This document shows positions 6,627 to 60,646 of a stretch of DNA of 64,000 nucleotides, one piece after another. The notes under the pieces are model-generated. The model ran no database searches, was not told the origin of the DNA, and was given only the letters and a program-made list of their open reading frames with translations. Position 1 is the first letter of the stretch. Each line of letters starts with the position of its first letter. The translations under genes were made by a program, and so were the position numbers. Where the stretch lies: the NCBI GenBank assembly GCA_002688035.1, contig NZBU01000012.1:18272-82271 (forward strand), read 5' to 3'. The stretch comes from Candidatus Iainarchaeum sp. Lineage in GTDB: Archaea; Iainarchaeota; Iainarchaeia; Iainarchaeales; GCA-2688035.

Positions 6627-7694
6627 TCAGCTATATACTTCCAAAACATCAAAGTTCTTTAGTACATACTCTTTTGGAATCCTTTGCCCCTCGTATTTGC
6701 TGCTTCCCCATAGCTTTGCATACTTCATTTTTGCAAAGTCCTTGTGCAGATGCTGCGCAGCTTCCTCAACAGTAGTTCCTTTTGGCATGGAAAGAGGTTC
6801 TGTGTAATCAACATTTCTACCCGGCTTTTTTGTGTAAACAAGTATTATGTCCAACAATTCAAATATTTTTTCCTTAAGGCTTTCGTTAATTTCTCCCTCT
6901 AAGTTGAAAGGGTTTATTGTTAACGCCTTCTTGTATACCAGTGATTCGTTTAAAGCTCTTGAAACAAGTTCAAGGTCCGCGGGCTCGTTTAGCACAACGC
7001 TTGCATGTCTAACACCCACACTTTGCAGAAAATCAACAAGTTCTTTCTCTTTTACCTTTAGGAATTGTTTTCCTGAAATTGAAATTCCTTTGTAACTTCC
7101 CTGCGAAATTTTTATTTTTGGCTTGGGTTTGTTCAGTAATATGCTCGCATTACCCAGCTCTTCTCCTAGAATGTTCTCAGCCTCATTGTTTTCCGCAACC
7201 AAAATTATCGCATCAGCGTTTCTTATTATTGCAAGCAGCTGTGGTCCATTGAATTTGCCTGAGCTGCTCCCCTTCACAATTGCCGGAATCTCAACGAGCT
7301 GGATTTTTCCGCCGTGAAAATCTAGCATTCCAACTGCGGGTTTAGTAGTTGTAAACTTATAGGGTGCGATTTCAACATCAACATTTGTTAATCTTTTTAA
7401 CAGAGTGCTTTTACCTGAGTTAGGCAATCCAACTAACACGATCTGGCCGACTCCTTCCTTTGGAACTGAGATGCTGCTTCCCTTTGCTTTTTTCTCCTGT
7501 AGCTTTTGTTTATCCATATCGCGTCTTACAGCCGCAATTTTCCTGCTAATATCTTTTCGCAGGTTCTCTCCACCCTTGTGTGCCGGAGCAAAGCGCTGCA
7601 TCTCAAGTAGTGCGGTTAGTTTGGCCTCTGGGCTTTTGGCCTGCTCGTAATTTATTCTGGCCTGATCAAATTCAAGGGTAACATTTGCTGGCAT
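6627..7694 (-). CDS. DRG/OBG-family GTPase with TGS domain
   Basis: GLPNSGKST, APYKFTTT, C-terminal TGS (HLHKDF..YAKLWG). Confidence 0.92.
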   Translation of the reverse strand: MPANVTLEFDQARINYEQAKSPEAKLTALLEMQRFAPAHKGGENLRKDISRKIAAVRRDMDKQKLQEKKAKGSSISVPKEGVGQIVLVGLPNSGKSTLLKRLTNVDVEIAPYKFTTTKPAVGMLDFHGGKIQLVEIPAIVKGSSSGKFNGPQLLAIIRNADAIILVAENNEAENILGEELGNASILLNKPKPKIKISQGSYKGISISGKQFLKVKEKELVDFLQSVGVRHASVVLNEPADLELVSRALNESLVYKKALTINPFNLEGEINESLKEKIFELLDIILVYTKKPGRNVDYTEPLSMPKGTTVEEAAQHLHKDFAKMKYAKLWGSSKYEGQRIPKEYVLKNFDVLEVYS

Positions 7695-7701
7695 AATTTA
7701 T

Positions 7702-8286
7702 CTATTGGTTGAAACACTTAAAAACCATTATTTCTTCGAAAAAGAGTTTTCTTCGCGCAATAACTGAAAAAGACAGGTCAAAAAAACACAATTTCTTGGA
7801 CGATTCTGCCTCAGAATTAAGACTGCTCTGTAAGAAAAAGCACGTTCCCTGCTCCCTCAAATGTTCAGGGAATTGCTCAAGAAAAAGGTCTAGCACTTCT
7901 CGTCCCTGCTTGCCCCCATCTGTGTCTTTCCATTTTTTCTCTTTACTTGGGACATATGGTGGATTGAATATTATGCAGTCAAATTGCTCCTTTATATTTT
8001 CAAAAAGATTGCTCTCCCTTGTCTCAATTCTCTCGCCAACTCCAAGGAGCTTGGCATTCTTTGCAGTGCATTCAAGTGCTTCTTTATTTATATCAACGCT
8101 CAGCACTTTTTTCGCGCCCTTTAGTGCGGCGCTTATTCCTTGTATTCCTGAGCCGCAACCCAAGTCCAGCACAAAATCATTTGCTTTCACTTCAACAGTT
8201 TCTTCAAGCAAAAAACTGTCTTCCCTTGGGGCATAAACGCTTGGAAAACCTGATGTTGAAACATTTGACAAATTAGCTTGTTTCAT
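7702..8286 (-). CDS. HemK2/MTQ2-type release-factor glutamine methyltransferase
   Basis: VYAPREDSFLL, LDLGCGSG, FNPPY. Start moved to ATG 8286 to avoid overlap with the upstream gene. Confidence 0.9.
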   Translation of the reverse strand: MKQANLSNVSTSGFPSVYAPREDSFLLEETVEVKANDFVLDLGCGSGIQGISAALKGAKKVLSVDINKEALECTAKNAKLLGVGERIETRESNLFENIKEQFDCIIFNPPYVPSKEKKWKDTDGGKQGREVLDLFLEQFPEHLREQGTCFFLQSSLNSEAESSKKLCFFDLSFSVIARRKLFFEEIMVFKCFNQ

Positions 8287-41498: not shown

Positions 41499-42794
41499 TT
41501 ACTTTGTAAAAGCACTTGCCGTTACTCCGGCATCCCAACTGAACCTTGGTCTAATTTTGACCATCCAAATTTTCTCAGTGTTATCATCAATGATTAGAGC
41601 ATATCCCTTGCTCTTTGGCATCTCGGCATACAGGTGATCAAAATCCTGGTGCAAGTAACTTGGGCGTAAAGCGGCGACAGCTTCAATGTCTGGTTTTGAA
41701 GTCATTCTGTGCGAGATAAACAAATCACATTGGCTTATTGCATCAGGATGCAGTTTGTTTGGGCGCTGTGTTGCAAGCAGCAAACTTAAGCCCGGTTGTC
41801 TCCCAACCCTCACCCATTCCAAAAGCACTTGTAGTGCAAGGTTATCAGAATCTTTTGGCATGAACATATGTGCCTCATCAATCAGCATCCACACAATTGG
41901 CATTGCCGATTCTCGCTTTTGTCCCTTTAACACTTTCATTTCCTCTTCTTTTCTAAATAGCATTCTTTCCTCAAACAGTTTTTTTCCAAGGAGTGCAACA
42001 ATTATATCTCTTGTTCCCTCCATTCCAACTGCCTGCCTGTAAGCACTCACATCAATAACAGTTATTTCCCCGGCCTTTGCTATCTCACTAAGCCTTGTTC
42101 CCTCTTTCTCGATGATGCCCCAGGTCTTCGCAACTTTTAACCTGTTTATCATTGCCTGCTTTACGAGCTTTGTGCTCTCAGCATCATTCTTTATTGCGGC
42201 AATGAGCTCGTCAATTCCATAGTAGCTTCCAAGCTTTTTCTTCACTTCATCTACAACACGCGTAATAAGTACTCCTTCAGGATCCTTCCATGTTAGTTTG
42301 AACAAAGCCATCCACTCAACAGCATCGAGCTCTGCTGCTTTCAGCGTAAACGCGCCACTGACAGGAAGTCCCTTTTCCTTGTAAAAATCGAGTTTTCCCT
42401 TTGGGACAAGAACCCTCACATTTGTTTCAGCTGGCTTTAAGTCCCAGTTCGCCAGCTCTTTCTCATTCTCTTTGTTTGCGAACTTAAGACTCCAGAATAT
42501 TCCGACTGTGTCAATTGTTATAATAGAAATCCTGTTCTTTATCTCGGGCTCCAGCCTTGCAAACTCTTCAAGCATGACGGCCATCGTGTACGATTTCCCG
42601 CCTCCACGCTTGCCGCAAACTAGGACAAGATGCGGTTTTGAGAGATCCATAAAGATTTTTCTGCCGAGAACAGGTTTTTCTCCCTTTGATAATAATACTT
42701 TTCCAATATAGCCTGTGCCCTTAAATTTGTATTTGGCAATGTCTTTTGGGGAGCGCCCTACAATGGATTTGGATTTACCTAATTCAATAGCCAT
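41499..42794 (-). CDS. HerA/FtsK-superfamily (DUF87) ATPase
   Basis: H...CGKRGGGKS, MLIDEAH, GRQPG, LATQRP. Confidence 0.9.
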   Translation of the reverse strand: MAIELGKSKSIVGRSPKDIAKYKFKGTGYIGKVLLSKGEKPVLGRKIFMDLSKPHLVLVCGKRGGGKSYTMAVMLEEFARLEPEIKNRISIITIDTVGIFWSLKFANKENEKELANWDLKPAETNVRVLVPKGKLDFYKEKGLPVSGAFTLKAAELDAVEWMALFKLTWKDPEGVLITRVVDEVKKKLGSYYGIDELIAAIKNDAESTKLVKQAMINRLKVAKTWGIIEKEGTRLSEIAKAGEITVIDVSAYRQAVGMEGTRDIIVALLGKKLFEERMLFRKEEEMKVLKGQKRESAMPIVWMLIDEAHMFMPKDSDNLALQVLLEWVRVGRQPGLSLLLATQRPNKLHPDAISQCDLFISHRMTSKPDIEAVAALRPSYLHQDFDHLYAEMPKSKGYALIIDDNTEKIWMVKIRPRFSWDAGVTASAFTK

Positions 42795-47609: not shown

Positions 47610-48113
47610 CTACAAATTCCTCGCTAAATACAGTACCTTCCTCCCTGATTGTATCTTATTCAAATGCCCGTCCTTAAACAGTTTGTTTAAGCGCTGAGAT
47701 GCGGCATTACTTCCTTTGTAGCCAAGTTCTGCCCTAACTTCTTCGGCAGAAACCTGGCCCCGAGTGTGGACCAGATGGATTATCATCTGGTCCTGTTCTG
47801 GCAAGATCTGAGTTGAGGAGAGCTGTGGTTGGGGTGTTGGGGTTAAGGAGTTTGTGTTGTTCGCTGTACTCTCCGTCTTTAGTTTAAGCATGATCTGATC
47901 ATATTTGTCAAAAATATTTTCCAATATCTTGTTTGTTTTTTCTCTTTCTTCAGCCAGCTTAAACAAAAGCATAGCCATAAACATGGGGTCCTTGTTGTGT
48001 TTGTATATTTCTTGGATATCCATGTTTAACTCATTGAACTTTGGGGACATCTTCTTTAGGATTTCCCCCTCCAAGACTTTGGAACTATCTTTGATTGAAT
48101 CATGACTTTCCAT
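47610..48113 (-). CDS. Coiled-coil plus C-terminal winged-HTH DNA-binding protein
   Basis: VSAEEVRAELGYKGSNAASQRLNKLFKDGHLNKIQSGRKVLY. ATG 48113 lies about 27 nt below TTTATATA. Confidence 0.78.
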   Translation of the reverse strand: MESHDSIKDSSKVLEGEILKKMSPKFNELNMDIQEIYKHNKDPMFMAMLLFKLAEEREKTNKILENIFDKYDQIMLKLKTESTANNTNSLTPTPQPQLSSTQILPEQDQMIIHLVHTRGQVSAEEVRAELGYKGSNAASQRLNKLFKDGHLNKIQSGRKVLYLARNL

Positions 48114-48167
48114 TGTAGTATCATGATACACTCATGACATATATAAAGCTTCCCTTTTCGGAGTCTT

Positions 48168-48297
48168 TGCACAAAAAGGGAGCACAATTTAGGATTTCAA
48201 ACCCCTTTTTTGTGCAAAAGGTCATCCTGCACATTAAGGGGTTTCTTGGAATTAATCAGGTTTTGGGCTATTTTGAGCCCTTTTTTTTGTGCAGTTT
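48168..48297. repeat. Four copies of CCC(T/A)5-8GTGCA in alternating orientation
   Basis: 48168-80(-), 48202-16(+), 48228-41(-), 48278-93(+); further copies at 48728-41 and 49570-82. Confidence 0.85.
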
Positions 48298-48306
48298 CCC
48301 CACGGA

Positions 48307-48681
48307 TTATGTTTTTGCTGTTTCAAAAACAGGCTTGCTTTTCCAAGCGCACACTATAAGGACGACATAAATAATTGGCATAATTAAAGAGTCTGCAGGG
48401 TGCGAGAGGAGATAAATTATTTTAACAATTCTCTCGATAAACCAAAACACAGGTAAGACTAAAGCCAAATAAAAACCAAACTTGCTTTTTTGAAATAATA
48501 AACCAATGGTGATTATTAATAATGCAAAATCTAACCCTATTTCAAAAGGCAACAGAGGATAACAGGTAACAAACTCAGAACTACAACCTAAAAACAACAG
48601 TCCTACAAAATTCAATATGCCAAGTAAAAAAACCACGCCCAGAAGAACTAAGCAAATTACCCACCAATCTTTTGATTGCAT
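48307..48681 (-). CDS. Small four-TM hypothetical protein
   Basis: 124 aa, hydrophobic, AT-rich DNA. Confidence 0.7.
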   Translation of the reverse strand: MQSKDWWVICLVLLGVVFLLGILNFVGLLFLGCSSEFVTCYPLLPFEIGLDFALLIITIGLLFQKSKFGFYLALVLPVFWFIERIVKIIYLLSHPADSLIMPIIYVVLIVCAWKSKPVFETAKT

Positions 48682-48831
48682 TCACTTTTTTAATGTCTTT
48701 TCTTCTATTTTGATCTTTCGCCACTAACCCTTATTTGTGCAGAATAGGGGTTTTTTTGTGTTCTGGTTAGGGGGAAATATTAGTTTATAATATTGGAATT
48801 AAATAAATACAAGTTTGATCTACAGTAAGGC

Positions 48832-49545
48832 ATGAACTTAGTTGATCGCTTGCTTGACTTGTTCGGATTGAATAGACTATTAAAGGTAAAAAATAGAAAG
48901 AAAGAGATTGAGAAAGGTATTGAAGAGTTTCTTGAAAGTGTTGAACAAAAAGAAGGAAAAGAGATTGCAAATCAAACAAGAGAGATCACTCTATTGAAAA
49001 CATCCTCTTGGTTGTCCTTAACCGATGAAAATATCATTAAAATATTGCATAGTATTGTTTCAGGATTAAAAGGTAAAACAGTACTTATGCCGCCAAGATT
49101 CCGAATTAAAGAGCCAAAGTTAAGCATTCTTTTACCAGAAAAAAAATAATCGTCAAAGCCAACTGAGTATTACGAAATTTACAAAGAACTTCCACCCATT
49201 TGTAATGGAAATTGGTTACCTCATGAAGAATACTGCGCAAGATTGCAAGCACATGAAAATAGTGAAAAATTTAAAGCGTTAAAAAGAAGATTACTGCTCA
49301 AGAGAGGAACTGAATGTGAATACTGCGGTAAAGAATCTGACCGAGAATCTGATTTTGATTTGCATCATGAAAGTTATAAACATGCAGGTGATGAACGCGA
49401 TGATGAAGTTAAGATTGCTTGTCATCAATGCCACTTTAAGCAAACAATGTTACAGAAAGGACTCACAACAGAGAACTATGTAAACCATATCCAAGATAGG
49501 TTTCAAAAAAAGCTTACAGACTATGAATACTATGAAATTTTTTAA
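48832..49545 (+). pseudogene. HNH endonuclease interrupted by one in-frame TAA (49147-49149)
   Basis: The two listed ORFs share a frame with 31 sense codons between them; CEYCG...DLHH...CHQCH. Confidence 0.6.
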
Positions 49546-49634
49546 TCTTTCTATTTAACTCTTATAACTCCTTTTTTGTGCAGTTTCGAGAAGTGGGCAA
49601 TAAAGTTAAATACATTGGAAAATAATCTATTAGT

Positions 49635-51017
49635 ATGCCTGCGAAGAAAAGACCACTGCTTGAAAGAATGGCTAGGGCCAGGAAGCTGAAAAGGATTCGT
49701 ACAGAGCGAAAAGTAACTAAGTCTAGGCATGAAGGCATCAGGGTTTTAAGAAATATATCCGCAATAAGGCGGTTTAGGCAGGAGGCAAAAGGAAAAGCGG
49801 TAACAAGACTTGGCTTTGGCAAGGAGGAGAACCGTGCTTTTGAACATGTCGCGGGATTAATGCGTAAAAGTGGCTTGTCGGTTAGAACAGATGCGTTTGG
49901 AAATCTTTATGGTCGGCTTGAAGGCAAGAGTTCAAAAGTGGTTATGGTTGGCTCACATTTGGATAGTGTGAGGAGAGGCGGAGCATTTGATGGGGTTTAT
50001 GGAGTTACTGCTGCACTTGAAGCCCTGAATAATATAAAGGCCACTGGAAACCCAGCCCATCCTATTGATCTTGTCGTATGGAGATGCGAGGAATCAGCCA
50101 GATTTAACAAAGCAATGCTTGGAAGCAATGCTGCTTTGGGCAAACTCACTGCCGAGGATTTAATACGAACAGACGCAAACGGTGTTACTCTTAGAAAAGC
50201 ATTGGAACAAAATGGTTTAACTTACAAGCCCGGACAGCAGCTAATTAATCCACAAAATGTCCTGTTATATATTGAGCCTCATGTTGAGCAAGGAGATATC
50301 CTGGCTCGTGCCAAAAGAAAAAGAATTGGAATTGTAACAAGAATTGCAGGTCCTGAAAGATATGAACTTACTTTCAAAAGCCATTCGGCTCATTCTGGCG
50401 CAACTCCAATGGGGCGCAGGCACAGAAAGGATGCTAATGTGGCGGCCTCAAAGGCAACTGTTAAAACAAGAAACCTAGCTTTAAGAGCCAATCATATTTC
50501 AAGAATTTTAGGTCCAACTGTTTCGCAGGCAGTACACAAAGGCCCAATAGTCGGAACCGTAACCCAAATGAGAACAGTGCAAGGTAGCCTTAATACTATT
50601 CCAGGGATGGTCAGAACAACTCTTGATGTAAGGGCCTTGTCTACGCATCAAAGAGGAAAGCTTGCAAAAAGAATAATTACGGGGGTTAGAAAAGCCGCGT
50701 TAAAAGAAGGGGTTTCACTAGATGTAAAAGAACTCTCCAGAAGTCCGCCTGTTTCAATGAGTGCCAAAAATGTTACTCTTCTTGAAAGAGTGTGCAGAGA
50801 AAATGGTATTGTCCATAGAAAGATGCCTTCCGGCGCAGGGCATGATGCATCCAATCTCCAGAAAGCAGGAATACCTAGCGCAATGTTCTTTGTGCCAAGC
50901 GAAGGTGGCTTTGCGCACAATCCTCATGAAAGAACGCATATAAAAGATCTGGGTGCCGGCGTAGTCCTGCTAACAAAATTCTTACATGGCGTGGCTAAAG
51001 TTAGTCCTGTCAATTAG
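49635..51017 (+). CDS. M20-family N-carbamoyl-amino-acid/allantoate amidohydrolase-like protein, unusually basic
   Basis: DAFGN, GSHLDSV, GAFDG, CEE.ARF, E.HVEQG, HSGATPM, SGAGHDA, HNPHE. Confidence 0.88.
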   Translation: MPAKKRPLLERMARARKLKRIRTERKVTKSRHEGIRVLRNISAIRRFRQEAKGKAVTRLGFGKEENRAFEHVAGLMRKSGLSVRTDAFGNLYGRLEGKSSKVVMVGSHLDSVRRGGAFDGVYGVTAALEALNNIKATGNPAHPIDLVVWRCEESARFNKAMLGSNAALGKLTAEDLIRTDANGVTLRKALEQNGLTYKPGQQLINPQNVLLYIEPHVEQGDILARAKRKRIGIVTRIAGPERYELTFKSHSAHSGATPMGRRHRKDANVAASKATVKTRNLALRANHISRILGPTVSQAVHKGPIVGTVTQMRTVQGSLNTIPGMVRTTLDVRALSTHQRGKLAKRIITGVRKAALKEGVSLDVKELSRSPPVSMSAKNVTLLERVCRENGIVHRKMPSGAGHDASNLQKAGIPSAMFFVPSEGGFAHNPHERTHIKDLGAGVVLLTKFLHGVAKVSPVN

Positions 51018-51030
51018 TCTGTTTATTAAT

Positions 51031-51537
51031 CTAAGAGAATGAGATTGCCACAGGCACTTTGAGAATCTTGTTTAGAATTTCCTCAAGCCTTTCTCTTTCT
51101 GATGCAATCTTTTTCATGTCGCGCTCGTCAATAATCGCTTTAAGTTCCTCGCCCTCTTGCTTGAAGACTTTGTTTACTGCCACAACTCTAATTCTACCCA
51201 TCACTTGCTGGATAGTATCTTTTGGGTCAGAGAGTTCTACAACGCGAACCTTTTTCCCAAGGACCTTTTCAAGTGCCTTAATGTTCTTGCCTTCTCGGCC
51301 TATGAGGGCACCAACATTTCCCCTCGCGAAAATGATTATGATCTTTGGGAGTTCAAATGCGCGCACAAGCTCTGTTGCGAGCAAAAACTTCTTGTTCTCA
51401 AGCTTGTTAATTGCCTTGGCTAGCTCGAAATCAATTTGCGTAATCTGCCCGGCTTTTAGCTTTGCCTTGCAGATCATGCAGAGTTTCCCGTATTTTATGT
51501 CTTCTTTGCAAATAGGCCCTTTCACTAAAAACACCAC
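51031..51537 (-). CDS. NusA-like KH-domain protein with N-terminal Cys motif
   Basis: PIC..D....LC..C and GALIGREGKNIK.L...LGKKVRVVE. Confidence 0.82.
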   Translation of the reverse strand: MVFLVKGPICKEDIKYGKLCMICKAKLKAGQITQIDFELAKAINKLENKKFLLATELVRAFELPKIIIIFARGNVGALIGREGKNIKALEKVLGKKVRVVELSDPKDTIQQVMGRIRVVAVNKVFKQEGEELKAIIDERDMKKIASERERLEEILNKILKVPVAISFS

Positions 51538-51598
51538 TTCTGAATAACTAAACTAAAATTAATAAGAATTGAAAGATGAAAAAGAAAGTCTTCCACTT

Positions 51599-51889
51599 TT
51601 ATTTTAACAATTGTATTTCAATGGCAGAAACCTTTAGTAGGTTTCCTTCGTCTGTAGTAATCTCTTCAGTAGCAATCTTGATGTCATTGATTTTTGTATC
51701 GGTAACAAACTTGTTCTTCACAATTTCTGCTACATCAACAGCTCTGCTGATTGCTTTTCCACGAGCCTTGAGCATAACCTCGTTTGCTCCCTGGTTCATC
51801 TGAGTTACAACAGCCAGGACGTAGCTCATTGTTCCTTTTTTGCCCACAAAAACAACGTTTTCATTGCCACTTGATTTTTCCCCTGCCAT
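51599..51889 (-). CDS. albA: DNA/RNA-binding protein Alba
   Basis: [35 protein letters not shown]. Confidence 0.97.
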
Positions 51890-52024
51890 TTTTCCCGCAC
51901 CTCCGCGCGAACTACTGTTCAATGAAAAAGACAACAATTACGATTGTGTTGTCTCAAATCTATTGTACTGCACAATCATTTAAAGGCTATTGTTAAAAGA
52001 AAAGAAGGAGGTGGAAACCTGCTT

Positions 52025-60571: not shown

Positions 60572-60646
60572 TGGGTCTGGGAGGATTTGAACCCCCGACC
60601 TGCGGCGTATAAGACCGATGCTCTAGCCAGGCTGAGCTACAGACCC
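60572..60646 (-). tRNA. tRNA-Ile(TAT)
   Basis: GGGTCTG/CAGACCC-A; D arm GCTC/GAGC; TCGGT-CTTATAC-GCCGC; GGGGG-TTCAAAT-CCTCC. Confidence 0.9.

Follow-up and report, generated by a model that had tools for sequence, protein, structure and literature searches.

The locus and its repeat copies

The window, a 64,000-nucleotide stretch of Candidatus Iainarchaeum sp. DNA, comes from a 745-kb assembly that is 61% complete, and its named relatives are labelled Iainarchaeum, Diapherotrites or Micrarchaeota. The repeats treated here lie between a conserved outer flank on the minus strand (51031..51937), consisting of a NusA-like KH gene (51031-51537) and alba (51599-51937), and a minus-strand gene for a 166-aa protein with a coiled coil and a winged helix (hereafter wHTH; 47610..48110), whose promoter is the insertion site. 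A sequence-only reading of the window had started the wHTH gene at 48131; the start is most likely 48110. The same reading reported six repeat copies, and we confirm these, with TGCAC/GTGCA cores at 48168, 48212, 48228, 48289, 48737, and 49578, as well as the alternating orientation of the first four and the occurrence of TTTTTTGTGCAGTTTC at either end of an AT-rich block (48294-49569; GC 33% versus 41% for the window). All 5 occurrences of CCC-W5-8-GTGCA in the 745-kb assembly fall at this locus, as do 6 of the 11 matches to the looser CC-W5-8-GTGCA, a clustering whose Poisson probability is negligible. Scattered single 13-mer matches in relatives fall mostly within coding genes (13 checked). 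A search for an RNA element at the locus gave no score near the gathering threshold. Elsewhere in the window, ARAGORN predicts a tRNA-Ile with anticodon TAT (60572-60646), which is unusual in archaea and may be a miscall.

Reading outward from the wHTH gene, TCATGA palindromes at 48100, 48121, and 48132 cover its start region (48100..48137), followed by a BRE-TATA box on the minus strand (48139..48153; 8.1 bits) and by 9 bases (48154..48162) that correspond to the target duplicated in relatives and have no partner copy beside a left end in the window. The first repeat copy comes next (48163..48180), and its position and sequence type are those of the terminal inverted repeat in the right end of a complete element described below. 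Beyond it are an internal motif, M1 (GGTTYRRAAWCCWAA; 48187..48203, minus strand), and a subterminal inverted pair (48203-48216 and 48228-48241). The minus strand of 48197-48277 translates to LKIAQNLINSKKPLNVQDDLLHKKGV plus a stop, that is, 26 codons and a stop codon that lies within M1.

The remaining three copies (48278, 48728, and 49570) correspond to the third unit seen in left ends of relatives and are best assigned as left-end-type units. All are on the minus strand. One (48278..48298) adjoins the right end, the remainder of its left end apparently lost, and resembles the third units of intact left ends; the next (48728..48762) would be a decayed left end in which a third unit and a degenerate second unit stand 20 bp apart; and the first two units are unrecognisable beside the last (49569..49587). 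Between these units lie putative passengers. A 124-aa hydrophobic ORF (48307..48681, minus strand) has no family match and no homologue among the other collected loci. What had been described as a 105-aa ORF and a separate HNH gene turns out to be a single 237-codon frame with a C-terminal HNH domain (48832..49545, plus strand), interrupted by one stop (49147-49149). This stop is a sense codon in the contigs of 2 of the 4 sequencing runs and is thus a strain variant or an assembly error; the contigs of the sequencing runs gave no credible junction that skips the cargo. An allantoate-amidohydrolase-like M20 gene with a basic N-terminal extension (49635..51017, plus strand) also lacks a homologue among the other collected loci; it is accessory here and possibly the passenger of an older element.

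The repeats as ends of IS5-family transposons

Comparison with relatives makes it almost certain that these repeats are the ends of IS5-family transposons and of their transposase-less derivatives, gathered at one reused site. The metagenome contig L182 carries a whole autonomous 6-kb element at the same wHTH promoter position, in which a three-unit left end is followed by passengers and by a 412-aa transposase that terminates within the right end, the whole flanked by an exact 9-bp duplication. The left end consists of the terminal repeat and two further direct units, 18 and 20 bp apart, and the right end of an inverted pair, the transposase stop, and the terminal repeat. Both terminal inverted repeats are found in L182, L187, L044, L047, L180, and L194, and the window has the right end only. 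Scanning metagenomes for the terminal unit close to the wHTH operator yielded 31 loci, about one-third of which are not wHTH promoters.

The L182 transposase (P0118) matches the NCBIfam IS5 model NF033579 at 150.8 bits (cut-off 140) as well as PF01609, and its family search returned no Mutator family match. Its closest relatives form a supported clade in a quick, midpoint-rooted tree built without any IS903 sequence, and several of their C-termini run through KPLNVQ toward HKKGV. These transposases have a zinc-ribbon-like N-terminus and a C-terminal tail encoded inside the right end. The translated LKIAQNLINSKKPLNVQDDLLHKKGV is 71% identical over 24 residues to one of them (P0126) and 61% over 28 aa to another (P0120), so it is the 3' tip of a transposase gene, and by this homology three of the four alternating copies form an intact transposon right end (48163-48277). 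In the window's own 61%-complete assembly we found no left terminal repeat, no partner for the 9-mer, and no intact transposase.

The same architecture occurs on an IMG/VR contig encoding a related 407-aa transposase, with three direct units at one end and, at the other, an inverted pair plus terminal unit, the inverted-pair end overlapping the last transposase codons. Among 12 pattern matches in IMG/VR, 1 is beside a transposase, 3 are end-like with no transposase nearby, and the rest are seemingly unrelated. A passenger-carrying relative with equal end architecture and a 10-bp duplication was observed on a virus-labelled IMG/VR contig (L104, 1359-5150). We also observed a second IS subfamily (L257, L271, L262, and L272) whose terminal repeat is one base shorter and whose duplications are apparently 11 bp long, and a complete MITE of about 100 bp, composed of three direct units, M1, and the terminal repeat, directly preceding the BRE-TATA of another gene (L142, about 7690-7800, reverse strand; G013:C106). 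M1 is kept at unchanged spacing after decay of the terminal repeat in L004, L008, L015, L044, L047, L050, and L194, and may be under selection or host-derived.

The wHTH gene, its operator, and its neighbourhood

A match to the wHTH gene is present in 36 of 41 genomes, at a single locus in each. The structure model of the protein shows a long helix and a C-terminal wHTH, and its fold matches are generic wHTH regulators; the best of them, the centromere binder AspA (E 4e-4), does not stand out from those to ordinary repressors. The TCATGA pair at the wHTH start is the sole such pair in the assembly, and at least 2 TCATGA copies occur at all 19 additional wHTH orthologues. Copies are spaced by 11 bp and then by 10 or 20-21 bp, near helical phase, and lie partly within coding sequence. 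The site of the wHTH protein is likely the TCATGA array just past the TATA box and not the TGCAC repeats. Since the array spans the start region, autorepression is suggested, and we regard the array as the likely operator of an uncharacterised, order-wide regulator.

The usual order in 23 mapped loci is alba, sometimes a KH gene, a variable stretch, and then wHTH. Where alba was located, it is separated from wHTH by as little as about 140 bp, without an ORF, at 4 loci and by as much as 8 kb, holding 10 ORFs, at the other extreme, and copies of the direct-repeat motif are interspersed among the variable genes. A family scan of 17 ORFs from six of these gaps identified PIN, HicA, HicB (2), aldehyde dehydrogenase, HAD hydrolase, and YbjQ proteins, along with two weak matches; 8 had no match. 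A HerA-like ATPase (window 41499-42794) is usually found just downstream of wHTH. It is mostly 431-436 aa long, with lengths of 845-863 aa at four loci (L041, L045, L034, and L055), where the longer form likely contains an intein.

Target duplication and a fixed register

We compared 22 candidate left ends with the 9-mer at the right end of their own locus. Eight matched at 9/9, representing 7 distinct loci, and 3 at 8/9, while cross-locus control pairs matched at 9/9 in 8 of 434 cases. The low-scoring candidates are mostly inner units by inspection; three plausible left ends scored 2/9, 6/9, and 6/9.

The element end lies 16 bp upstream of the wHTH TATA box, and the 9-mer directly abuts the BRE. 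The 9-mer itself is variable, with 26 distinct sequences among 30, and the 14 bases that follow it are a conserved BRE-TATA whose columns are strongly conserved. Its weak consensus, at most 1.2 bits per position, means that sequence may contribute to targeting. A promoter model learned from the window's assembly gave its best score at offset 9 from the element end.

Thirty loci were picked by the wHTH protein alone, and 27 of them could be scored for register. The terminus stands exactly 25 bp before the first TCATGA in 19 of these 27 (17 of 20 in the window's family and 2 of 7 outside it), and one more has a match at 64 bp. Three members of the window's family that have no terminus retain M1 at 63-66 bp. 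Order-wide, the register pattern is found in 32 of 196 genomes from nine families and in none with the reversed control; this pattern contains only five bases of the element end, and full ends were seen in the 13 loci inspected. Ends in register are also present in four further families. Among the 19 additional orthologues, there is 1 intact end, 1 degenerate end, and several M1-like relics recognised by eye, the rest having none. Because the genomes are related, these register counts overstate independence.

Stacked elements and a second transposase clade

Directly across the 9-mer, 7 of the 13 left ends examined adjoin an older right end that is still intact; another 4 adjoin a decayed one, and the other 2 have none. 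Intact ends are promoter-proximal and decayed ends distal, an arrangement indicating that newcomers likely insert next to the promoter. L260 and L274 contain SWIM-type transposases that are about 41% identical to P0118, fall on a separate tree branch, and have different terminal repeats; at the wHTH promoter both duplicated the same 9-mer, meaning that the same cut was used. Several left ends sharing one common 9-mer were observed in L137 and L138 (G162:C19 and C54), and this 9-mer is also present at the G162 wHTH promoter on another contig. These arrays are likely a single large stacked island split by assembly.

Ends at other promoters

A program found 56 termini away from wHTH genes, 6 of which have a BRE-TATA at offsets 8-10. 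Inspection by eye discarded 17 of the 56 rows, which were doubtful or proved to be inner units or left ends taken in reverse; none of these had a BRE-TATA in register. This left a BRE-TATA at offsets 8-10 for 5 of 22 right ends of the AAAG type, the terminal type of the window, and for 1 of 17 of the AAG type. The background frequency of BRE-TATA is 0.4% genome-wide and 4.2% in upstream regions, and the binomial probabilities are 0.002 and 0.005 with kinship ignored. An automatic second pass, chance matches included, counted 3 among 21 termini resembling right ends and 1 among 18 resembling left ends. Most ends at other loci have no promoter in register. Judging from these motif matches, the promoter-edge preference outside the wHTH gene looks real and is partial.

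A proposed model of promoter-guided insertion

Element anatomy, duplications, register, and stacking are all read directly from the sequences, and from them we infer, with somewhat more confidence than doubt, that the ends sit 16 bp before the wHTH TATA box through repeated insertion guided by promoter-bound TBP-TFB. The footprint of TFB ends at the BRE. As the staggered cuts would flank 9 bp that touch the BRE, TBP-TFB would be the simplest guide. The transpososome would cut where the TFB footprint ends on its upstream side, and such a cut would leave BRE, TATA box, and operator intact and the promoter whole, so that the site could be used again. Each newcomer would separate the preceding right end from the promoter and displace older elements outward. 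The displaced elements would lose their transposase and ends and leave their passengers behind (toxin-antitoxin, nuclease, membrane, and metabolic genes), and recombination between direct units would shorten elements to MITE-like forms. More speculatively, wHTH protein bound at TCATGA might hold TBP-TFB at the promoter without polymerase and so turn it into a hotspot; archaeal repressors are known that block polymerase yet leave TBP-TFB bound. A complex prediction for the transposase with a TFB core taken from a relative scored 0.02, which speaks neither for nor against such guidance, and TFB was not found in the window's own 61%-complete assembly. In its fullest form, the proposal would be that a broad group of archaeal IS5 transposases reads TBP-TFB and inserts flush at the BRE, that in these small archaea an autorepressed promoter serves as a standing dock where accessory genes are taken up and stacked, and that the host has kept M1, a piece of the right end, as an upstream element of its own; we put this forward tentatively, as something rather less than probable.

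The register could also have been inherited from one ancient insertion, with later elements landing beside the existing end or at a preferred 9-mer and no promoter factor involved. An older right end, intact or decayed, precedes 11 of the 13 left ends, which fits such end-guided insertion equally well. Relics of the inner motif at equal spacing in several more families and the weak consensus of the 9-mer also agree with it, and an IS5 member is described as creating hotspots beside existing copies, on a 10-kb scale, in the portion of PMC11335895 that deals with them. What makes us consider this history unlikely is that L182 inserted with no older end upstream, that the same offset occurs at unrelated promoters, that clades with different terminal repeats used the same cut, and that intact ends are promoter-proximal and decayed ends distal. 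A guide of another kind would be the wHTH protein itself, which on its TCATGA operator might recruit the transposase in place of TBP-TFB, like a host-encoded TnsD. In each of the 19 in-register cases the first TCATGA lies 25 bp away, the assembly has no second operator pair of this kind, and 18 of 39 right-end-like termini are at the wHTH gene, a share taken from collected loci that are enriched for this locus. The operator, however, is beyond the TATA box, whose distance is equally constant, the offset is maintained by ends at other promoters that have no TCATGA, and in many orthologues the operator is present with no end beside it. Recruitment by wHTH therefore seems to us quite improbable.

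The sequence-only reading had offered two explanations of its own. One was a replication origin or centromere-like site read by the wHTH protein, in keeping with a nearly universal, single-copy wHTH gene, a locus-specific motif, and AspA as the top fold match (E 4e-4). This explanation has to be given up almost entirely. The array encodes a transposase tail, the in-register terminus is absent from 8 of 27 scored orthologues and from most of the 19 others, and the AspA match does not exceed those to ordinary repressors. As that reading had noted, the window has no cdc6; both cdc6 matches of the assembly are on other contigs (C4 and C5), and in the complete genome G038 cdc6 is about 515 kb distant from the locus. 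Skew in 21 sampled stretches of G038 and in the window's contig C12 was uninformative, with no clear replichore pattern or interpretable switch, and no ParA or ParB families were found among the neighbour genes scanned, which were part of the window's genes. The other explanation, recombination sites that delimit gene cassettes, survives in part. Comparison of the locus in relatives revealed, as it had predicted, a conserved wHTH gene with repeats and variable cargo, and the repeats do bound that cargo; they do so as ends of DDE transposons with 9-bp duplications rather than as sites of conservative recombination. An integron-like or Xer/dif-module array driven by a tyrosine recombinase would account for direct-repeat units between passengers, and a tyrosine recombinase family is present in 38 of 41 genomes. 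Yet the locus-specific 9-bp duplications and the DDE transposase inside the ends, the lack of a recombinase-like ORF in the ORF lists of the arrays, and the failure to find a tyrosine recombinase in the window's own 61%-complete assembly make such an array extremely improbable. Phage-type attP with arm sites was dropped as a candidate, along with Xer/dif, given the 9-bp duplications and the transposase tail.

Significance and comparison with known systems

The locus shows how small uncultured archaea can acquire and exchange accessory genes at a single safe position with no integrase involved. With a single 412-aa transposase, defined ends, and a base-exact target, the way in which a simple IS locates a promoter can be tested directly using purified TBP and TFB, and the system could yield a neutral-site delivery tool for archaea. 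The locus is also a caution against taking every repeat array next to a wHTH gene in such genomes for an origin. We came across no description of this site, or of IS5 elements directed to promoters in archaea, in a literature search that covered neither ISfinder nor the supplements of PMC3942029 and of PMC13343696, where such elements may be listed, and a term search of the main text of a 2026 archaeal IS survey found no mention of promoter, TATA, hotspot, or target site (PMC13343696).

The elements are like other members of the IS5 family (IS903, ISAba13, and passenger-carrying or MITE derivatives) in having a single DDE transposase, terminal inverted repeats, and a 9-bp duplication, and their termini presumably resemble those of IS903. 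A 9-bp duplication is described for the IS903 composite Tn602 in the part of PMC9282650 that treats it. They are unlike known IS5 elements in that a single site at a promoter edge is reused, exact to the base, throughout an order, in tandem stacking and multi-unit ends, and in the zinc-ribbon-like N-terminus and the C-terminal tail within the right end of the transposase gene. IS5-family hotspots described in the passages of PMC11335895 on this subject are kilobase-scale regions bound by H-NS.

Tn7 at attTn7 reuses a neutral site beside a conserved gene, where elements and decayed islands stack, and the locus described here is similar in having one reused neutral site beside a conserved gene and stacked elements. 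In contrast to Tn7, there is one transposase and a 9-bp duplication, and neither TnsB, TnsC, or TnsD genes nor other dedicated targeting proteins were recognised in the ORF lists.

The closest precedent for a fixed distance upstream of a promoter is that of TnGBS and ISLre2, which like ISKra4 insert 15-17 bases upstream of the -35 box and in most cases turn their right end toward the promoter (PMC3942029); here the distance is 16 bp before the TATA box. For TnGBS-type elements, contact with the initiation complex is proposed and not shown in that text (PMC3942029). Those elements use a Mutator-like transposase and sigma-A promoters at many targets, whereas here an IS5 transposase would act at an archaeal BRE-TATA with one dominant gene, so that fixed-distance promoter targeting, described there for Mutator-like bacterial elements, would extend to the IS5 family and to BRE-TATA promoters.

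A further parallel would be with eukaryotes. The retrotransposon Ty3 acts through its integrase at Pol III genes, where interaction with the factors has been shown, whereas for the elements described here it is inferred. In yeast, Ty3 integration is tied to the TBP-containing initiation complex, through TFIIIB/TFIIIC (as cited in PMC3942029). If true, the reading of TBP-TFB by archaeal IS5 elements would be a prokaryotic counterpart of Ty3 targeting.
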